Virus record (IMG/VR): IMGVR_UViG_2671180473_000014
Origin: a virus
Lineage: Duplodnaviria; Heunggongvirae; Uroviricota; Caudoviricetes
DNA: 44,047 bases
Strand: one strand, 5' to 3'
Positions 21,773 through 27,453 of this stretch are shown piece by piece. Numbering within the stretch: the first letter of the stretch is position 1; each line of letters begins with the position of its first letter. The notes under the pieces were generated by a model. That model worked only from the letters and a program-made list of their open reading frames with translations. It made no database searches and was not told where the DNA came from. The position numbers were made by a program, and so were the translations under genes.

Positions 21773-23230
21773 TTAGGAGCGCCAAAAAAAACCTGAAAAC
21801 AATATAATAACAGGATAAATTTCAAGGCGACCAAGAATCATAGCTATGCACATTAAATATTTTGCAATGTCATTAAGCACTCCGAATGACGATGCAGTAG
21901 CCCCAAAACCTAATCCCATATTATTAATACATGCAGCCACTGTTGCAAATGATGTAAGAAAATCATATCCCATACCATTTAACACCAGTATAAAAAACAC
22001 CGTGAAGAGAGTATAAAGAAAAAAGAAACTCCATACAGACCTCATTACACGATCTGTAACTATCTTCCCTCCTACATTTACACTCAACAACGCTCTGGGA
22101 TGAGAAAGCTGATTTATCTCGTGTTTGCTTTGTTTGAAAAGTATAAGAAATCGAAGTGACTTAATTCCACCACAGGTTGAACCTATACATCCCCCAAAGA
22201 AACTTGACAACAGCAAAAACACTATCGTGTGCGTGGGCCAGTTTGCATAATCCTGCGTAGCTAAACCATTATCAGTGAGCATGGAGCTGGCAAGAAAAAA
22301 CGAATGAATAAAACTTCCATGCAAGTCATACATACCTATATGCCAGACCTGGAAAGAGGTAACAATGATCACCCCTAAGGCTATTAACAGAAAGAAACGA
22401 AGTTCAATATCTCTGATTAAAGGTTTTATCGTTTTTCTGCTAATAACAATATACCAAAGAGTGAAGTTGAAAGCCGATAGCAGGGAAAAAGAACCAGCCA
22501 CCAGCTCAACCAAATAGTTATTAAAATATCCGATACTCTCGCTATGAGTTGAGAAACCACCAAGCGAAACTGTGGAAATCCCGTGACAAATAGCATCAAA
22601 CAAAGGCATTCCTGCAAGTCTATAACAGACAATACAAGCAATACCTAATAAAGAATAAGTTATCCACAGTGTCCGTGACGTATCGGCCAGGCGGGGAGTG
22701 AGTTTGTCATCCTTAAATGGCCCCGGCATTTCTGACTGATAAAGCTTTGCACCACCAATACCCAATAATGGCAATACTGCAACCGCCAGAACAATAACTC
22801 CTAAACCACCTATAAAATTTAACTGTGACCGATAGTACAAATATGCCCGAGGTAATGAACTAACATCATCAATTACAGTTGCTCCTGTTGTTGTTATTCC
22901 AGAAACCCCTTCAAACAGAGCATCAATGAACGTTAAATTAAGTTCTGAGTCAATCCATAAAGGGAATGCACTAATAACAGAAAACAAAATCCAAAACATT
23001 ACAATTATAATAAACCCATCACGGGTACGTAATTGAATGCCAGATTTCTTAGTTGTATACCACGCTCCGCCACCAATGCAAAAAAATATAACGAAAGTTA
23101 TAAAGAAAACGAACAGGCTTTTTTCTTTATAAAACAATGCTACAACCATTGGTGGCAACATTGAAAGACTATAGAGCCAAACCAGGAACCCACACATATG
23201 AGTAACAACTCTTACATGAGATGTATTCAT
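21773..23230 (-). CDS. trkG: Trk-system potassium uptake protein TrkG (TrkH/KtrB family)
   Basis: 485 aa from MNTSHVRVVTHMCGFLVWLYSL...; multi-pass membrane protein with the GIGGAK / GLGFG-type selectivity-loop motifs; known Rac prophage cargo gene; AT-rich relative to its flanks. Confidence 0.9.
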   Translation of the reverse strand: MNTSHVRVVTHMCGFLVWLYSLSMLPPMVVALFYKEKSLFVFFITFVIFFCIGGGAWYTTKKSGIQLRTRDGFIIIVMFWILFSVISAFPLWIDSELNLTFIDALFEGVSGITTTGATVIDDVSSLPRAYLYYRSQLNFIGGLGVIVLAVAVLPLLGIGGAKLYQSEMPGPFKDDKLTPRLADTSRTLWITYSLLGIACIVCYRLAGMPLFDAICHGISTVSLGGFSTHSESIGYFNNYLVELVAGSFSLLSAFNFTLWYIVISRKTIKPLIRDIELRFFLLIALGVIIVTSFQVWHIGMYDLHGSFIHSFFLASSMLTDNGLATQDYANWPTHTIVFLLLSSFFGGCIGSTCGGIKSLRFLILFKQSKHEINQLSHPRALLSVNVGGKIVTDRVMRSVWSFFFLYTLFTVFFILVLNGMGYDFLTSFATVAACINNMGLGFGATASSFGVLNDIAKYLMCIAMILGRLEIYPVIILFSGFFWRS

Positions 23231-23367
23231 ATCTAAATATTCTTTCAATTATAACCACCTTGCTGCAATATTATGATTATACTGTATAAAATTTAACTCC
23301 TCTTAGATCTTACTTCACTGTTCCTTATGAAACAATCATCAAAATGAATCATATTGTAGTTAAGATT

Positions 23368-23675
23368 TTACTTTAAACACTGCTCGGTTATGTATTGCTG
23401 AGCACCTTCAAGTTGGGCCTGCATCATTACCAGTCGTTCCCGGAGGGTGAAATAATCCCGTTCAGCGGTGTCTGCCAGTCGGGGGGAGGCTGCATTATCC
23501 ACGCCGGAGGCGGTGGTGGCTTCACGCACTGACTGACAGACTGCTTTGATGTGCAACCGACGACGACCAGCGGCAACATCATCACGCAGAGCATCATTTT
23601 CAGCTTTCGCATCAGCTAACTCCTTCGTGTATTTTGCATCGAGCGCAGCAACATCACGCTGACGCATCTGCATGT
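23368..23675 (-). CDS. Rz: Spanin inner-membrane subunit Rz (partial; N-terminus lost in N-run)
   Basis: ...MQMRQRDVAALDAKYTKELADAKAENDALRDDVAAGRRRLHIKAVCQ... matches the lambda Rz C-terminal two thirds. Confidence 0.85.
23427..23612 (-). CDS. Rz1: Spanin outer-membrane lipoprotein Rz1 (embedded in Rz, +1 frame)
   Basis: MRKLKMMLCVMMLPLVVVGCTSKQSVSQCVKPPPPPAWIMQPPPDWQTPLNG...; lipobox VVGC and proline-rich body, nested entirely inside Rz. Confidence 0.85.
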   Translation of the reverse strand: MRKLKMMLCVMMLPLVVVGCTSKQSVSQCVKPPPPPAWIMQPPPDWQTPLNGIISPSGNDW

Positions 23676-24039
23676 NNNNNNNNNNNNNNNNNNNNNNNNN
23701 NNNNNNNNNNNNNNNNNNNNNNNNNNNNNNNNNNNNNNNNNNNNNNNNNNNNNNNNNNNNNNNNNNNNNNNNNNNNNNNNNNNNNNNNNNNNNNNNNNNN
23801 NNNNNNNNNNNNNNNNNNNNNNNNNNNNNNNNNNNNNNNNNNNNNNNNNNNNNNNNNNNNNNNNNNNNNNNNNNNNNNNNNNNNNNNNNNNNNNNNNNNN
23901 NNNNNNNNNNNNNNNNNNNNNNNNNNNNNNNNNNNNNNNNNNNNNNNNNNNNNNNNNNNNNNNNNNNNNNNNNNNNNNNNNNNNNNNNNNNNNNNNNNNN
24001 NNNNNNNNNNNNNNNNNNNNNNNNNNNNNNNNNNNNNNN
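23676..24039. other. Assembly gap (364 N) across the endolysin 3' end and the Rz 5' end
   Basis: Run of n characters. Confidence 1.
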
Positions 24040-24425
24040 TTGATATCGCCCTGGTTTATTTTGCGAAGAAGCGTCGATGTTCTGAAATTGCCAGCGCCCA
24101 CGTTGTAAACGAACGAGTAAAGAGCGCCGCGCGTTGTTTCCGGTATATCGACTTTGATGTACGGGTTAATTTGTCTGGCGACAGTGGCAAGGTCTTTATT
24201 CAAGAGTGTTTTGCATTCTGCTTTGGTATACGTTTTACCGAGCATGATGTCTTTTCCTGTATGCCCGTGACATACAGTCCATACACCAACAATATCTTTG
24301 TATGGTATGTAGCTGACACCTTCCAGACCATCGTTACCACTTGGGCCAGTGATTAACACTGATGCTATAGCAATTGCTCCGCCACCAATAGCAGCAGCAA
24401 CGACTTTTCGTAATGATGGAGGCAT
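24040..24425 (-). CDS. R: SAR endolysin (P21 R-type lysozyme; partial, C-terminus lost in N-run)
   Basis: [57 protein letters not shown]...; N-terminal Gly/Ala-rich signal-anchor-release segment followed by a T4-lysozyme-type catalytic region. Confidence 0.85.
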
Positions 24426-24640
24426 TATTCACCTCTCGCAGCCTTGCGCTTATCTTCTTTAATCTTGAAATAAAGGTTTGTCAGGTACGTCAGCAGGCCA
24501 AATACCAGACTACCCAGCACACCGATTGCAGCCCACTGTGACGGAGTTACTCTATCGAGCAACTGTAAAAACCAGTAGCCAGCACTGCCTGCGGAGGTGC
24601 CGTAGGCAATGCCTGTTGAAATTTTGTCCATGGATTTCAT
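24425..24640 (-). CDS. S: Pinholin S (phage 21 S-type) with dual-start motif
   Basis: [71 protein letters not shown]; two in-frame ATGs (24638-24640 and 24629-24631) giving antiholin and holin forms; strong SD GGAGGTGA upstream; TGA/ATG-coupled to R. Confidence 0.85.
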
Positions 24641-24891
24641 AGCCTCACCTCCGCACGGAACGGATGGCATAGTTATTATGTGTAGGCTTTCAGACACATC
24701 AATCAGAGCCTTAATTGATATATATGCTGGAGACGATGCAATATAAAAAGCTCGCCGTAGCGAGCTAATAAAATGTATTTCTCTGATATTATGTTTATTT
24801 GTATTAGCTCAGACTTGACATCACAGGTTTCGTATATAGAACATCATCAAATCTGTCAGTTTGCTATGAATGAGATATAGTAATTGAAGAG

Positions 24892-25287
24892 CTAACCTCG
24901 CATGTCAAAGCCAGATTTCTGAAAATCTCTGTAGACTTCCGGATTGTTGAAGGCCGGAAATTTGGCTTTATGAGCTGCGGACTTTATCGCTTCGCAATAG
25001 GCTTTATCACCGTTACTGGTAGATATTTTTAACGCCGTGCCATCCTGAGAGAATTCCATATGCAACCTGCATTTTTTCCCTTTCCAGTTATGCGGCTCAT
25101 CAAGTTTGGCATTAATTGCAGCTCTGATTCCCCGCGCTTGCGCCCCCCATTCATCCTGATCATCCCAGCGTCCTGAACTGCAACTACCTGTAGCAGTAGT
25201 TTTGTGGCAATCTGAAGGGTGTAAAGGTGTGCATCCCGCAACAAAACCGACCCAAAAAGTCAACATAACGATTTTCTTTAATCCCAC
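24892..25287 (-). CDS. Lipoprotein with TolA C-terminal (domain III)-like domain, paralog 2
   Basis: Signal peptide plus lipobox (MGLKKIVMLTFWVGFVAGC, GTG start with GAGGAG SD) and C-terminal region ...GIRAAINAKLDEPHNWKGKKCRLHMEFSQDGTALKI...KFPAFNNPEVYRDFQKSGFDMRG, collinear with the TolA C-terminal pattern. Confidence 0.6.
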   Translation of the reverse strand: MGLKKIVMLTFWVGFVAGCTPLHPSDCHKTTATGSCSSGRWDDQDEWGAQARGIRAAINAKLDEPHNWKGKKCRLHMEFSQDGTALKISTSNGDKAYCEAIKSAAHKAKFPAFNNPEVYRDFQKSGFDMRG

Positions 25288-25437
25288 TTCTTGCTCCTCA
25301 ATCCATTAAAATCTCAGCAATAGTAGTTGTTACGTCCGCCACTGGCTCAGAGCTGACTATCCGCTAAATTTAGCTCAGTGCCGTAGCTGTGTCAGAACAA
25401 ACCTAAGCCGAAACCGTTTATTACAAAACAATAAATA

Positions 25438-25866
25438 TCAGGGTTTAAAATCCAGCACCCCATTTTGAAATACTTTATATACTTCCGGCGAAGGGGGGGC
25501 AGGTATATCAGCATTCTTTATCGCATTCATCGCTTCACGACATAAATCGAGGTCTCCACTTTCTCTTTTAACCTCCAGTAGAAGGCCATTCGGGGCCATA
25601 TGCATTCTCAGTGTACACTCTTTTCCTGAATACTTACTCGCATCCCCGAACTGTTTTTCGATGGCGCTCTTGATTTGATGGGCATACAGACGGATATCCT
25701 CACTAACATCAGAAGTACGTTCAGATGAACTCACATACTGTGTCTCTATTGCTTTATCGGAGTAATATGATGTACGGTCATGATAATTTGTCGATACAGC
25801 ATCAGTGCACCCGATAATAATCCCACTAATAATCAACGTAAGAATTGATGCGCTACGAAAACCCAT
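25438..25866 (-). CDS. Lipoprotein with TolA C-terminal (domain III)-like domain, paralog 1
   Basis: Lipobox IIIGC; C-terminal 80 aa YAHQIKSAIEKQFGDASKYSGKECTLRMHMAPNGLLLEVKRESGDLDLCREAMNAIKNADIPAPPSPEVYKVFQNGVLDFKP closely resembles the E. coli TolA C-terminus as recalled (...YAGQIKSAIESKFYDASSYAGKTCTLRIKLAPDGMLLDIKPEGGDPALCQAALAAAKLAKIPKPPSQAVYEVFKNAPLDFKP). Confidence 0.7.
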   Translation of the reverse strand: MGFRSASILTLIISGIIIGCTDAVSTNYHDRTSYYSDKAIETQYVSSSERTSDVSEDIRLYAHQIKSAIEKQFGDASKYSGKECTLRMHMAPNGLLLEVKRESGDLDLCREAMNAIKNADIPAPPSPEVYKVFQNGVLDFKP

Positions 25867-26803
25867 TTTTCCTCACATATGTCATATAGTAAAGGATTAT
25901 ATATACCGTTGTTTTGGACGCTCAAACAGCGAATCAGATCAAATAAAACGCACATTTGTTAACATTTACACAAAGTCTGCGTGGGATATTCTGAAAGAAT
26001 ATCCATAATGTGGAGAGAATCTATTGAAGTGCATGGTGCCGGGTGCCTCCCGGTGAACAAAATGTTCGTGATACCTGTCGGCGACAGAAAAGGTTAATGG
26101 TATCACCCCACCGCACAGGGGGATTCACCATGCAGGAGTTTTCTTAGCAAACTCACTGCGCGCCCGGCAACTCCCAACCACATAAAATGCGGAGTTTGTG
26201 GCATTTATGCATATAACTCGCAGGAATTATCTTAAAAAACTGATGTCGATCCGGATTAAAAAGAAGCAGGTCATCATCAGATGACTGGAAAAAAGGAAAA
26301 CAAAAAATACTCATCATACAGTTTTGATTGCAGGGATGAGCCTGCTATGCACAATATGCAGAATATAAGCAAGATAAAAATATGCAGGCATATTATTTCG
26401 GATCTTGTTATTAACACAACCTTTTTAATAATCATTTGGCATACAATAAACCAGCCCAAAAAGAACCGCCTAAACAGGCGGTTGGTCAATACAAAGGATG
26501 CTTCGTCTTTATTATAGTAATCTGAGGCGTCGGGTGTCTTGTATCAGACAACATATTGTCCCGCTAAACAGCGAATTACAAACCACCCTGCAATGATCTC
26601 TCATCTCATTTTATATGAGTTGACGACATCAGGATAACGCATCATCAGCCCCTGCCAAGAAATATCAAAACTCCCGCCAGCAATGTGTTATCACAATATT
26701 GTAAAAAAAACACAGCACCGAAACTATAACTGGTCTCTGTTATAATTTGGAGCAGAAAGACCAGTTGCCCAACTAGCAGCATTCTCCCCTGCTTTCCTGA
26801 CGT

Positions 26804-26830
26804 AAAAAAACCGCATTAAGCGGTTTTTTT
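26804..26830. terminator. Bidirectional intrinsic terminator (possible tR'-like terminator just downstream of the Q-like gene)
   Basis: AAAAAAACCGC-ATTA-AGCGGTTTTTTT: GC stem with A-run on one side and T-run on the other, about 80 nt downstream of the Q-like stop on the minus strand. Confidence 0.6.
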
Positions 26831-26910: not shown

Positions 26911-27453
26911 TCAAGCCATTTTCTCAGCAAATGATTCACGCATGGGAATATATAGGGCATACTCAGCAACAGCTAACCAATTAGCAATCCGTTTTTCGCA
27001 TGTGCTAAAACACCACTCTGGGTGTGCATCATTTAGCAATTCAGCCATTTTGCGCTTAGTCATCCCCCGCCCTTCATAGCGTTGCCGGAGAATGCAAATC
27101 AATCCTGGATGCTCTGCCAGCACCTCACTTATGACTCGATCAATACATAACGCCTCTGCATCAGTACAATGCGCCAGCCAGCTCTTTTGCTTGCCGTTGA
27201 TCATCTCTCGCAAAAACGCTTCCAGCTCAGCTTTCTCTATTCCCGCTTTTTTCATTCTGCGCAGGGCTTCATTAATGGCTGTTTTCGTCAGTTTTTTGGA
27301 TGCCAACAACTGATTGAACATATTCCCTGACCTGCCACCGCCAATATACGACCAGCGCCCCCACATACGTAGTTTTCCCTGAATCCAGACACTTTCCAGC
27401 GTGGTGAGGCGAAGGTGTTCTCCGCTTTTTCCTGTATTCGTTGGGTAAATCAT
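26911..27453 (-). CDS. Putative late-gene antiterminator (Q-like, by position)
   Basis: 180-aa ORF immediately upstream (in transcription order) of a terminator and the lysis cassette, following nin-type genes; no sequence-level match recalled. Confidence 0.35.
   Translation of the reverse strand: MIYPTNTGKSGEHLRLTTLESVWIQGKLRMWGRWSYIGGGRSGNMFNQLLASKKLTKTAINEALRRMKKAGIEKAELEAFLREMINGKQKSWLAHCTDAEALCIDRVISEVLAEHPGLICILRQRYEGRGMTKRKMAELLNDAHPEWCFSTCEKRIANWLAVAEYALYIPMRESFAEKMA

Follow-up and report, generated by a model that had tools for sequence, protein, structure and literature searches.

Two adjacent genes of a Rac-type lambdoid prophage of E. coli, here called P1 and P2, encode short lipoproteins that end in a copy of the third domain of the host protein TolA (TolAIII), and we suggest, with a rough probability of 45%, that their products are outer-membrane-tethered TolAIII decoys directed against Tol-dependent colicins and filamentous phages. 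The prophage is the IMG/VR virus record IMGVR_UViG_2671180473_000014, whose whole stretch of 44,047 nucleotides is called the window below. An earlier note, made from the letters of the window alone, had pointed to two such open reading frames (ORFs), and both are present where it placed them, on the minus strand (Table 1). Established here are the structure of the genes, the homology and fold of their domains, the lack of energising domains, the purifying selection on them, their mobility and their distribution, and from these we infer expression in the lysogen, ligand binding and a protective phenotype. The case for decoys is stronger for P1, a close mimic of TolA, than for P2.

The likeness to TolA domain III, which the earlier note had seen by eye, lies far beyond chance by Pfam, phmmer and BLASTP and by the fold match of P2. 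Against a gathering threshold of 25 bits, the Pfam profile TolA_C (PF06519) scores 82.6 bits for P1 (E=2.4e-23) and 54.6 bits for P2 (E=1.3e-14). In phmmer searches against the TolA chains of the PDB both proteins align without gaps, residues 55-142 of P1 to E. coli TolA 334-421 (E about 5e-28) and residues 51-129 of P2 to TolA 341-419 (E about 5e-9), and BLASTP puts the identity to E. coli TolA at 60% for P1 (TolA 336-421) and 34% for P2. The TolA peptide quoted in the earlier note matches the PDB sequence. For P2, an AlphaFold model built from a 19-sequence family alignment reaches a predicted local distance difference test score (pLDDT) above 90 over most of the domain and lower values at both domain ends. 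Foldseek matches this model to the TolAIII structure 3QDP with a target-normalised template modelling score (TM-score) of 0.92 and a root-mean-square deviation of 1.1 Å over 86 columns, and the runners-up are TolAIII complexes with colicin A, with the gene-3 protein (g3p) of phage IF1 and with g3p of M13. The alignment and the Foldseek comparison that had been proposed as checks thus both returned significant similarity to TolA domain III, by sequence and by the structure of P2. A single-sequence AlphaFold model of P1 (pLDDT 56) was discarded as too poor, and for this protein the TolAIII fold is predicted from its 60% identity to solved chains. The cysteines aligned to TolA Cys363 and Cys388 are kept in P1 and P2. 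The docking strand beta3 (TolA 417-421) is unchanged in P1, which reads LDFKP, and in P2 it reads FDMRG, with D418 and the beta-forming residues kept.

Both genes carry signals for translation and for lipoprotein sorting. A Shine-Dalgarno element lies at the proper distance 5' of each start (GAGGA in P1, GAGGAG in P2), and the lipoboxes GIIIGC20/T of P1 and GFVAGC19/T of P2 fit the pattern [LVI][ASTVI][GAS]C as IIGC and VAGC, respectively. They had been read before as IIIGC and FVAGC without Asp at position +2, and this reading is correct: both have Thr there and thus, by the sequence rule, no inner-membrane retention signal. In the family alignment the lipid-bearing Cys is invariant and the Gly before it nearly so. 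Lipidation and an outer-membrane location of P1 and P2 are accordingly predictions from sequence rules, and the P1 linker is presumably a flexible tether. As for the start of P2, the GTG, backed by a strong ribosome-binding site, is a more plausible start than the internal ATG of the 124-residue PGAP/RefSeq product, which loses the positively charged n-region; plasmid copies of P2-type genes are annotated as 143 amino acids, extended 5' through the ribosome-binding site. The RefSeq/PGAP gene symbol for the 142-residue P1 lipoprotein is tolA, a misnomer, and the annotation of one genome or more enters it as a partial pseudogene of tolA; such a label from annotation pipelines can mislead gene-content analyses.

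The proteins are not TolA. Full-length TolA architecture is absent in both, which have neither the transmembrane anchor nor the helical domain II and therefore cannot couple to the TolQR motor. The TolA profiles of NCBIfam are matched over their last ~95 positions only (293-386 of 387), in proteins of 131-142 residues. With NF007065, P1 scores 107.8 and P2 53.7 bits, below the cutoff of 213, whereas with TIGR02794 P1 scores 75.6 against a cutoff of 59.45 and passes through domain III alone, which probably explains its RefSeq name. PHROGs assigns both proteins to phrog_5772, and the only above-threshold matches in Pfam, PHROG and NCBIfam are TolA_C, TonB_2, TIGR02794 (P1 only) and phrog_5772. 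The TolA domain assignment is therefore already public in Pfam and RefSeq and not new to databases; full-text literature searches returned no description of, or experiment on, TolA-like lipoproteins from prophages or plasmids. A HMMER search with P2 yielded 130 cluster representatives, 68 of them full-length proteins of 105-170 residues, and few full-length TolA. A lipobox is present in 50 of the 68 short proteins, none of these 50 has Asp at +2, and 13 of the 50 have a C-x(6-10)-C pair. Named members of the P2 family belong to Erwinia, Klebsiella, Enterobacter and Leclercia, and homology is the sole basis of their annotations. Among the viral structures of BFVD, Foldseek found no TolAIII-like protein at E≤0.001.

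The earlier note called the two genes tandem paralogues. They are indeed an adjacent homologous pair, but paralogy is too strong a word: P1 and P2 are 29% identical, P1 is nearer host TolA than P2, and genes of each type are found alone in other elements. Thus, they are not recent duplicates, and their histories differ. A recent capture of P1 from host tolA was also considered and rejected, since in none of 5426 complete E. coli genomes does blastn match the P1 domain DNA to chromosomal tolA. With the DNA diverged past blastn detection, the 60% protein identity between P1 and TolA is old and kept by selection rather than a sign of fresh capture.

Selection on the two genes is purifying, and it is distributed differently along them. 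A few pairwise comparisons by the Nei-Gojobori method, among P2-type copies from the window, pO157, an IncK plasmid, Enterobacter and Serratia, give ratios of nonsynonymous to synonymous substitution rates (dN/dS, ω) of 0.08-0.15 at dS 0.5-1.0. Within P1 the linker evolves fast (ω 0.59) and the domain is constrained (ω 0.24). Within P2 the domain shows ω 0.06-0.14, and the 28 residues after the lipidated Cys show ω 0.02-0.09, with synonymous sites near saturation. This stretch has the pattern C-x-PLHPS-x-CHKTTATGSC-SSGRWDDQDEW, which is kept across genera, and AlphaFold leaves it disordered despite purifying selection beyond that of many folded domains. Judged by its conservation, it behaves as a second functional module and not as a spacer. 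A phmmer search of the module against the PDB gave no match. The idea that its segment SGRWDDQDEWG mimics the TolB box of colicins is speculative, its Trp-Trp spacing being unlike that of the ColE9 box. In a further protein (P0023), a signal peptide and linker of the P0026 type are joined to a TolAIII domain of the type of P1 in the window, a chimera that indicates recombination inside the gene between P1 variants.

Both types are common. The two-gene block, counted where a match covers at least 80% of it, occurs in 772 of the 5426 complete E. coli genomes, with best matches 100% identical, and P1-type domains occur in 897 of them (about one in six); a P1-type variant gene from another prophage has matches in 136 genomes. 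P2-type genes are found on ~600 plasmids at about 88% nucleotide identity, and the context was sampled in eight of these. All five conjugative plasmids in the sample have a mating-pair formation system of type MPF_I and carry the gene beside trb transfer genes, and four of the five are IncK2/Z. In the three with an annotated nikB, the P2-type gene lies 68 bp downstream of nikB, after a terminator-like hairpin. The plasmid copies share the CTGACA-N17 promoter-like element of the window, and the stretch CTGACA..GCTAYGGYACTGAG 5' of P2 is common to them. On pO157-type plasmids the P2-type gene stands between toxB and hok/psiA/psiB and is preceded by a 3' remnant of nikB as in IncK2/Z, thus this segment derives from a conjugative plasmid of the I type. 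The copies of Enterobacter, Serratia, Citrobacter and Klebsiella are solitary chromosomal genes in unrelated neighbourhoods; the one in Serratia marcescens (L010/L011, 8957-10736) adjoins a GmrSD_N (DUF262-like)/HEPN pair that looks like a defence module. The 80 loci kept from the IMG/VR scan hold near-identical copies of the same cassette only.

This distribution bears on whether the genes do anything at all. One may argue that they are captured tolA fragments carried passively in a decaying prophage, given that Rac-type prophages are often defective and that PGAP annotates P1 as a pseudogene in at least one genome, as noted above. However, both ORFs are intact and have Shine-Dalgarno elements and lipoprotein signals not found in tolA, dN/dS stays far below 1 although dS is high, the block is conserved without change in its best matches and widely present, and members of the family occur on plasmids, in prophages and on the chromosomes of several genera. 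Passive debris is effectively refuted by the selection analysis and by intact signals for expression and sorting, and we regard it as very improbable.

A different question is whether the TolA likeness of P2 reflects its present function or its ancestry. The TolAIII/TonB-C fold together with the Cys-loop could be a general beta-augmentation adaptor, through which proteins of the P2 type bind a different partner, itself conserved; this might be part of a conjugation apparatus or pilus, an outer-membrane protein or peptidoglycan. The low identity of P2 to TolA suits this explanation, as do its nearest relatives, which fall into dozens of clusters of short lipoproteins and not among full-length TolA proteins, the very strong constraint on its N-terminal module and the place of the gene between nikB and the trb transfer genes on I-type plasmids. 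Yet the solitary chromosomal copies have no common neighbour and so no co-travelling partner gene, the plasmid copy is preceded by a terminator-like hairpin and by a promoter-like site of its own, unlike a member of a transfer operon, and the model of P2 agrees very closely with E. coli TolAIII (1.1 Å). We consider such a partner quite unlikely.

In the decoy reading, which we prefer, the linker of 28-34 residues would hang a free TolA domain III into the periplasm from a lipid anchor in the outer membrane. P1 and P2 would thus sit just beneath the outer membrane, at the place where a group A colicin first exposes its translocation domain and a filamentous phage the tip of its g3p, and would offer these incoming ligands the same beta-strand docking edge as TolA. 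Ligands would then be held unproductively, with no coupling to TolQR, and the lysogen or plasmid host would be tolerant. TolAIII is the periplasmic docking point for the N1 domain of filamentous-phage g3p and for colicins N and A, and the N terminus of TolB is its physiological partner. Levengood-Freyermuth et al. reportedly found in 1993 that periplasmic TolAIII confers colicin tolerance. At strand beta3 of TolA, g3p-N1, colicin N and the TolB N terminus bind by beta-augmentation, and the substitutions D418P or K420P abolish this binding (PMC4339652, PMC7391070). The strand tolerates substitution if beta-forming residues are retained, and colicin A binds elsewhere, at beta2 on the far side of the domain (PMC4339652). 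The FDMRG of P2 fits this permissive rule, because D418 and the beta-forming residues are kept. The structure 2X9A in the PDB is IF1 g3p bound to TolAIII. Phage IF1 attacks through I-type pili, which P2-type plasmids specify, and the decoy reading fits these carriers. In addition, Tol-dependent bacteriocins are known in the genera that carry solitary P2-type genes. The retained beta3 strand, the lack of an energising domain, the carriage on I-pilus plasmids and the solitary chromosomal copies together lend indirect support to the decoy idea.

The same docking edge could also act on the host itself, and this is the main rival, which we hold to be rather unlikely. Tethered TolAIII would bind the N terminus of TolB, and perhaps further partners of TolA, would titrate TolB away from energised TolA and loosen the link between the outer membrane and the cell wall, and the outcome would be more vesiculation, leakage or toxin release, or easier disruption of the outer membrane at lysis. 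TolB binds the beta3 edge that is unchanged in P1, and TolAIII exported to the periplasm of wild-type cells perturbs the envelope, releases periplasmic proteins and makes cells leaky (PMC6195910). A review suggests that changing TolB-Pal and/or TolB-TolA interactions could regulate vesicle production (PMC7391070). Moreover, the genes belong to the Q-dependent late unit, in which the holin comes next after them, and they move together with it in a mosaic block (Table 1), and the strong conservation of P2 suits a conserved host partner. On the other hand, most P2-type genes are on plasmids or alone on chromosomes, with no lysis cassette nearby, for which reason the suggestion that the proteins aid lysis loses support; genes for a holin, an endolysin and spanins are present in the prophage anyway; the affinity of TolA for TolB is weak, with a dissociation constant of about 40 µM (PMC4339652); and a constitutive tol-like defect should be counter-selected in bile-exposed gut bacteria.

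Several observations weigh against decoys as well. If a decoy also binds the TolB N terminus, a leaky and costly "tol" phenotype should follow, which is hard to square with genes this common. P2 is far from TolA in sequence and yet extremely conserved across genera, linker included, a pattern that points to adaptation to a single conserved partner more than to colicins and phage proteins, which are diverse and evolve fast. Filamentous phages are irrelevant for lysogens without conjugative pili. No family of the PADLOC-DB defence models matches P1 or P2 at E≤1. Finally, promoter-like matches in the region number 11, compared with 7.4±2.7 in shuffled sequences, and its promoters and terminators are assigned by consensus only.

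Should the decoy reading hold, it could be extended to the whole family, although we find this broader proposal doubtful. In it, short TolAIII lipoproteins would be widespread, unrecognised single-gene tolerance determinants against everything that parasitises TolA, namely group A colicins, related bacteriocins and pilus-specific filamentous phages, and they would be spread by prophages, I-pilus conjugative plasmids, pO157 and enterobacterial chromosomes. P2 would be bipartite, with its strongly conserved Cys-loop module serving as a further epitope that binds, for example, the TolB propeller, to make a high-avidity trap at the outer membrane.

Comparison with known systems helps to place the two proteins. 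They share with host TolA domain III (~334-421; PDB 1TOL, 1S62, 2X9A, 3QDP/3QDR) the Pfam domain, the fold and the Cys363-Cys388 pair, but they have a lipoprotein signal in place of domain I (the TolQR-coupling helix) and helical domain II, so that the domain would hang from the outer rather than the inner membrane and could not be energised. P1 has stayed close to the host domain, with LDFKP unchanged, whereas P2 has diverged and has an extra conserved Cys-loop module. Laboratory constructs of periplasmic TolAIII (Levengood-Freyermuth 1993; Wan & Baneyx 1998) are likewise detached domains in the periplasm and perturb the outer membrane, and they set the direct precedent in function for decoys; however, they are soluble, over-expressed and identical to the host domain, while P1 and P2 are natural, diverged, predicted to be lipid-anchored and presumably expressed at a low level. 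As to their cellular address, small lipoproteins of mobile elements, made in the known cases from the resident element, block entry at the envelope, among them Cor of phi80, N15 and mEp phages, Llp of T5 and TraT of F-like plasmids. The same address and ecological role would apply to P1 and P2, but by analogy only: scans of Pfam, PHROG and NCBIfam reveal no homology to Cor, Llp or TraT, and these three inactivate a surface receptor (FhuA, OmpA), whereas P1 and P2 would imitate a periplasmic co-receptor. In superinfection immunity mediated by g3p, a filamentous phage ligand blocks the entry of phages and colicins through g3p-N1 and TolAIII. The interaction targeted is the same, but there a ligand saturates the host receptor, while with P1 and P2 a copy of the receptor would saturate the ligand.

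The genetic setting is that of exchangeable cargo. The gene order of the window is that of a Rac-type prophage in strain ECCHD184, which runs intR, recET, replication genes, a DUF1133 Q-like gene, two TolA-like genes, lysis genes, trkG, terminase and head/tail genes. As the earlier note had it, P1 and P2 lie after the Q-like gene and before the lysis genes, and the slot carries other cargo in other prophages. P1-type genes are solitary in the Q-to-holin region of other lambdoid prophages, beside tRNA genes, an AraC-like gene, a DUF1737/SASA/DUF6645 gene that is probably nanS-p, and DUF826. In phage mEp460_ev081 the mosaic block is 99% the same, yet the Q and endolysin regions differ from those of the window. 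Phages with the Q-like gene of the window gave no DNA match downstream of that gene, and tblastn with P2 over 50,697 phage records found the protein in one only. Judged by their variable presence and mosaic boundaries, P1 and P2 are accessory, moron-like cargo, and the promoter and terminator sites that flank them are putative. A scan for LexA boxes upstream of P1, P2 and their homologues found none. Among the prophage regions that vary between strains in a comparison of uropathogenic E. coli genomes, one of 1,355 bp is listed with the content "TolA protein, hypothetical protein" (PMC6854850). A "TolA"-type gene of CP-933O reported as induced by ciprofloxacin (PMC11125564) was considered and discarded, since a 50-kb EDL933 prophage stretch at the presumed position of CP-933O contains no TolA-like gene; the paper names the gene a "tail fiber protein", a label also borne by the 216-nt holin in the mEp460_ev081 record, so its remark on TolA may rest on a misannotated holin.

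Table 1. The P1 and P2 genes and the features around them, in window coordinates
Feature	Position	Strand	Basis and remarks
P1 gene	25866..25438	minus	ATG start, 142 amino acids, lipoprotein with TolA domain-III copy; ORF call, Pfam, phrog_5772
P1 signal peptide and lipobox	25807..25866	minus	MGFRSASILTLIISGIIIGC; Cys20, +2 = Thr; read from sequence
P1 linker, residues 21-54	25705..25806	minus	dN/dS 0.59; pLDDT <50 in single-sequence model
P1 TolAIII domain, residues 55-142	25441..25704	minus	gapless alignment to TolA 334-421
P2 gene	25287..24892	minus	GTG start, 131 amino acids, lipoprotein with diverged TolAIII domain
P2 signal peptide and lipobox	25231..25287	minus	MGLKKIVMLTFWVGFVAGC; Cys19, +2 = Thr; read from sequence
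P2 N-terminal module, residues 20-47	25147..25230	minus	TPLHPSDCHKTTATGSCSSGRWDDQDEW; two extra cysteines; dN/dS 0.02-0.09; predicted disordered
P2 TolAIII domain, residues 48-131	24895..25146	minus	AlphaFold/Foldseek match to 3QDP; Cys pair kept; C-terminal strand FDMRG
Q-like late-gene regulator (DUF1133)	27453..26911	minus	annotated antitermination protein Q in phage records
pR'-like promoter (AAGACA-18-TATAAT)	26540..26511	minus	consensus scan; assigned by analogy with lambdoid late operons
tR'-like terminator	26483..26464 and T-run (to 26455)	minus	directly 3' of the pR'-like site; by analogy
STnc100 small RNA match (Rfam RF02076)	26163..25977	minus	full-length, 86.6 bits against gathering threshold 47
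sigma-70 promoter-like site (TTGAGC-18-TATAAT, 10/12)	25925..25896	minus	~30 nt 5' of P1 start; consensus scan only
Weaker promoter-like site (CTGACA-17-TAAATT)	25395..25367	minus	5' of P2; consensus scan only
Intrinsic-terminator-like hairpin (AGCTCGC-TACG-GCGAGCT and TTTTTAT)	24766..24739, hairpin 24766..24749	minus	between P2 and holin
EssD-type holin, first lysis gene	24425..24640	minus	ORF and annotation
Mosaic block: holin, P2, P1 and ~190 bp upstream	24424..26057	minus	99% identical in phage mEp460_ev081

Some further features of the region were recorded. The STnc100 match was considered as a leader of P1 and rejected, because the P1-type genes of other prophages are preceded by tRNA genes and not by such a match; it contains position 26057, where the block shared with mEp460_ev081 ends on its upstream side. 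Just 3' of the Q-like gene, at ~26806-26830, a hairpin with a flanking A-run and T-run (AAAAAAACCGCTTAATGCGGTTTTTTT) looks like a bidirectional terminator. At 24640 the holin frame opens with a lambda-like dual-start motif, ATG AAA TCC ATG (MKSM), and an in-frame GTG upstream, at 24697, extends the mechanical ORF to 90 amino acids (24425-24697). Masked bases (N) occupy 23672-24043 inside the endolysin gene; the alignment gap over this run is ~364 bases in the window and ~265 in strain SE11, and the real length may differ. As other Rac-type prophages do, this one carries the potassium transporter gene trkG (21773-23248, minus strand) with the lysis genes on one side and the ParB-like and terminase genes on the other; it is another cargo gene of this prophage.

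If P1 and P2 are decoys, a single mobile gene would suffice to protect its host from a whole class of bacteriocins and from filamentous phages, and co-receptor mimicry would be added to the repertoire of entry exclusion. This would bear on colicin competition in the gut and on colicin-based antimicrobials, and also on the use of pilus-specific phages to select against resistance plasmids. For research on the Tol-Pal system, the two proteins would provide natural TolAIII variants in which ligand binding is separated from energisation.

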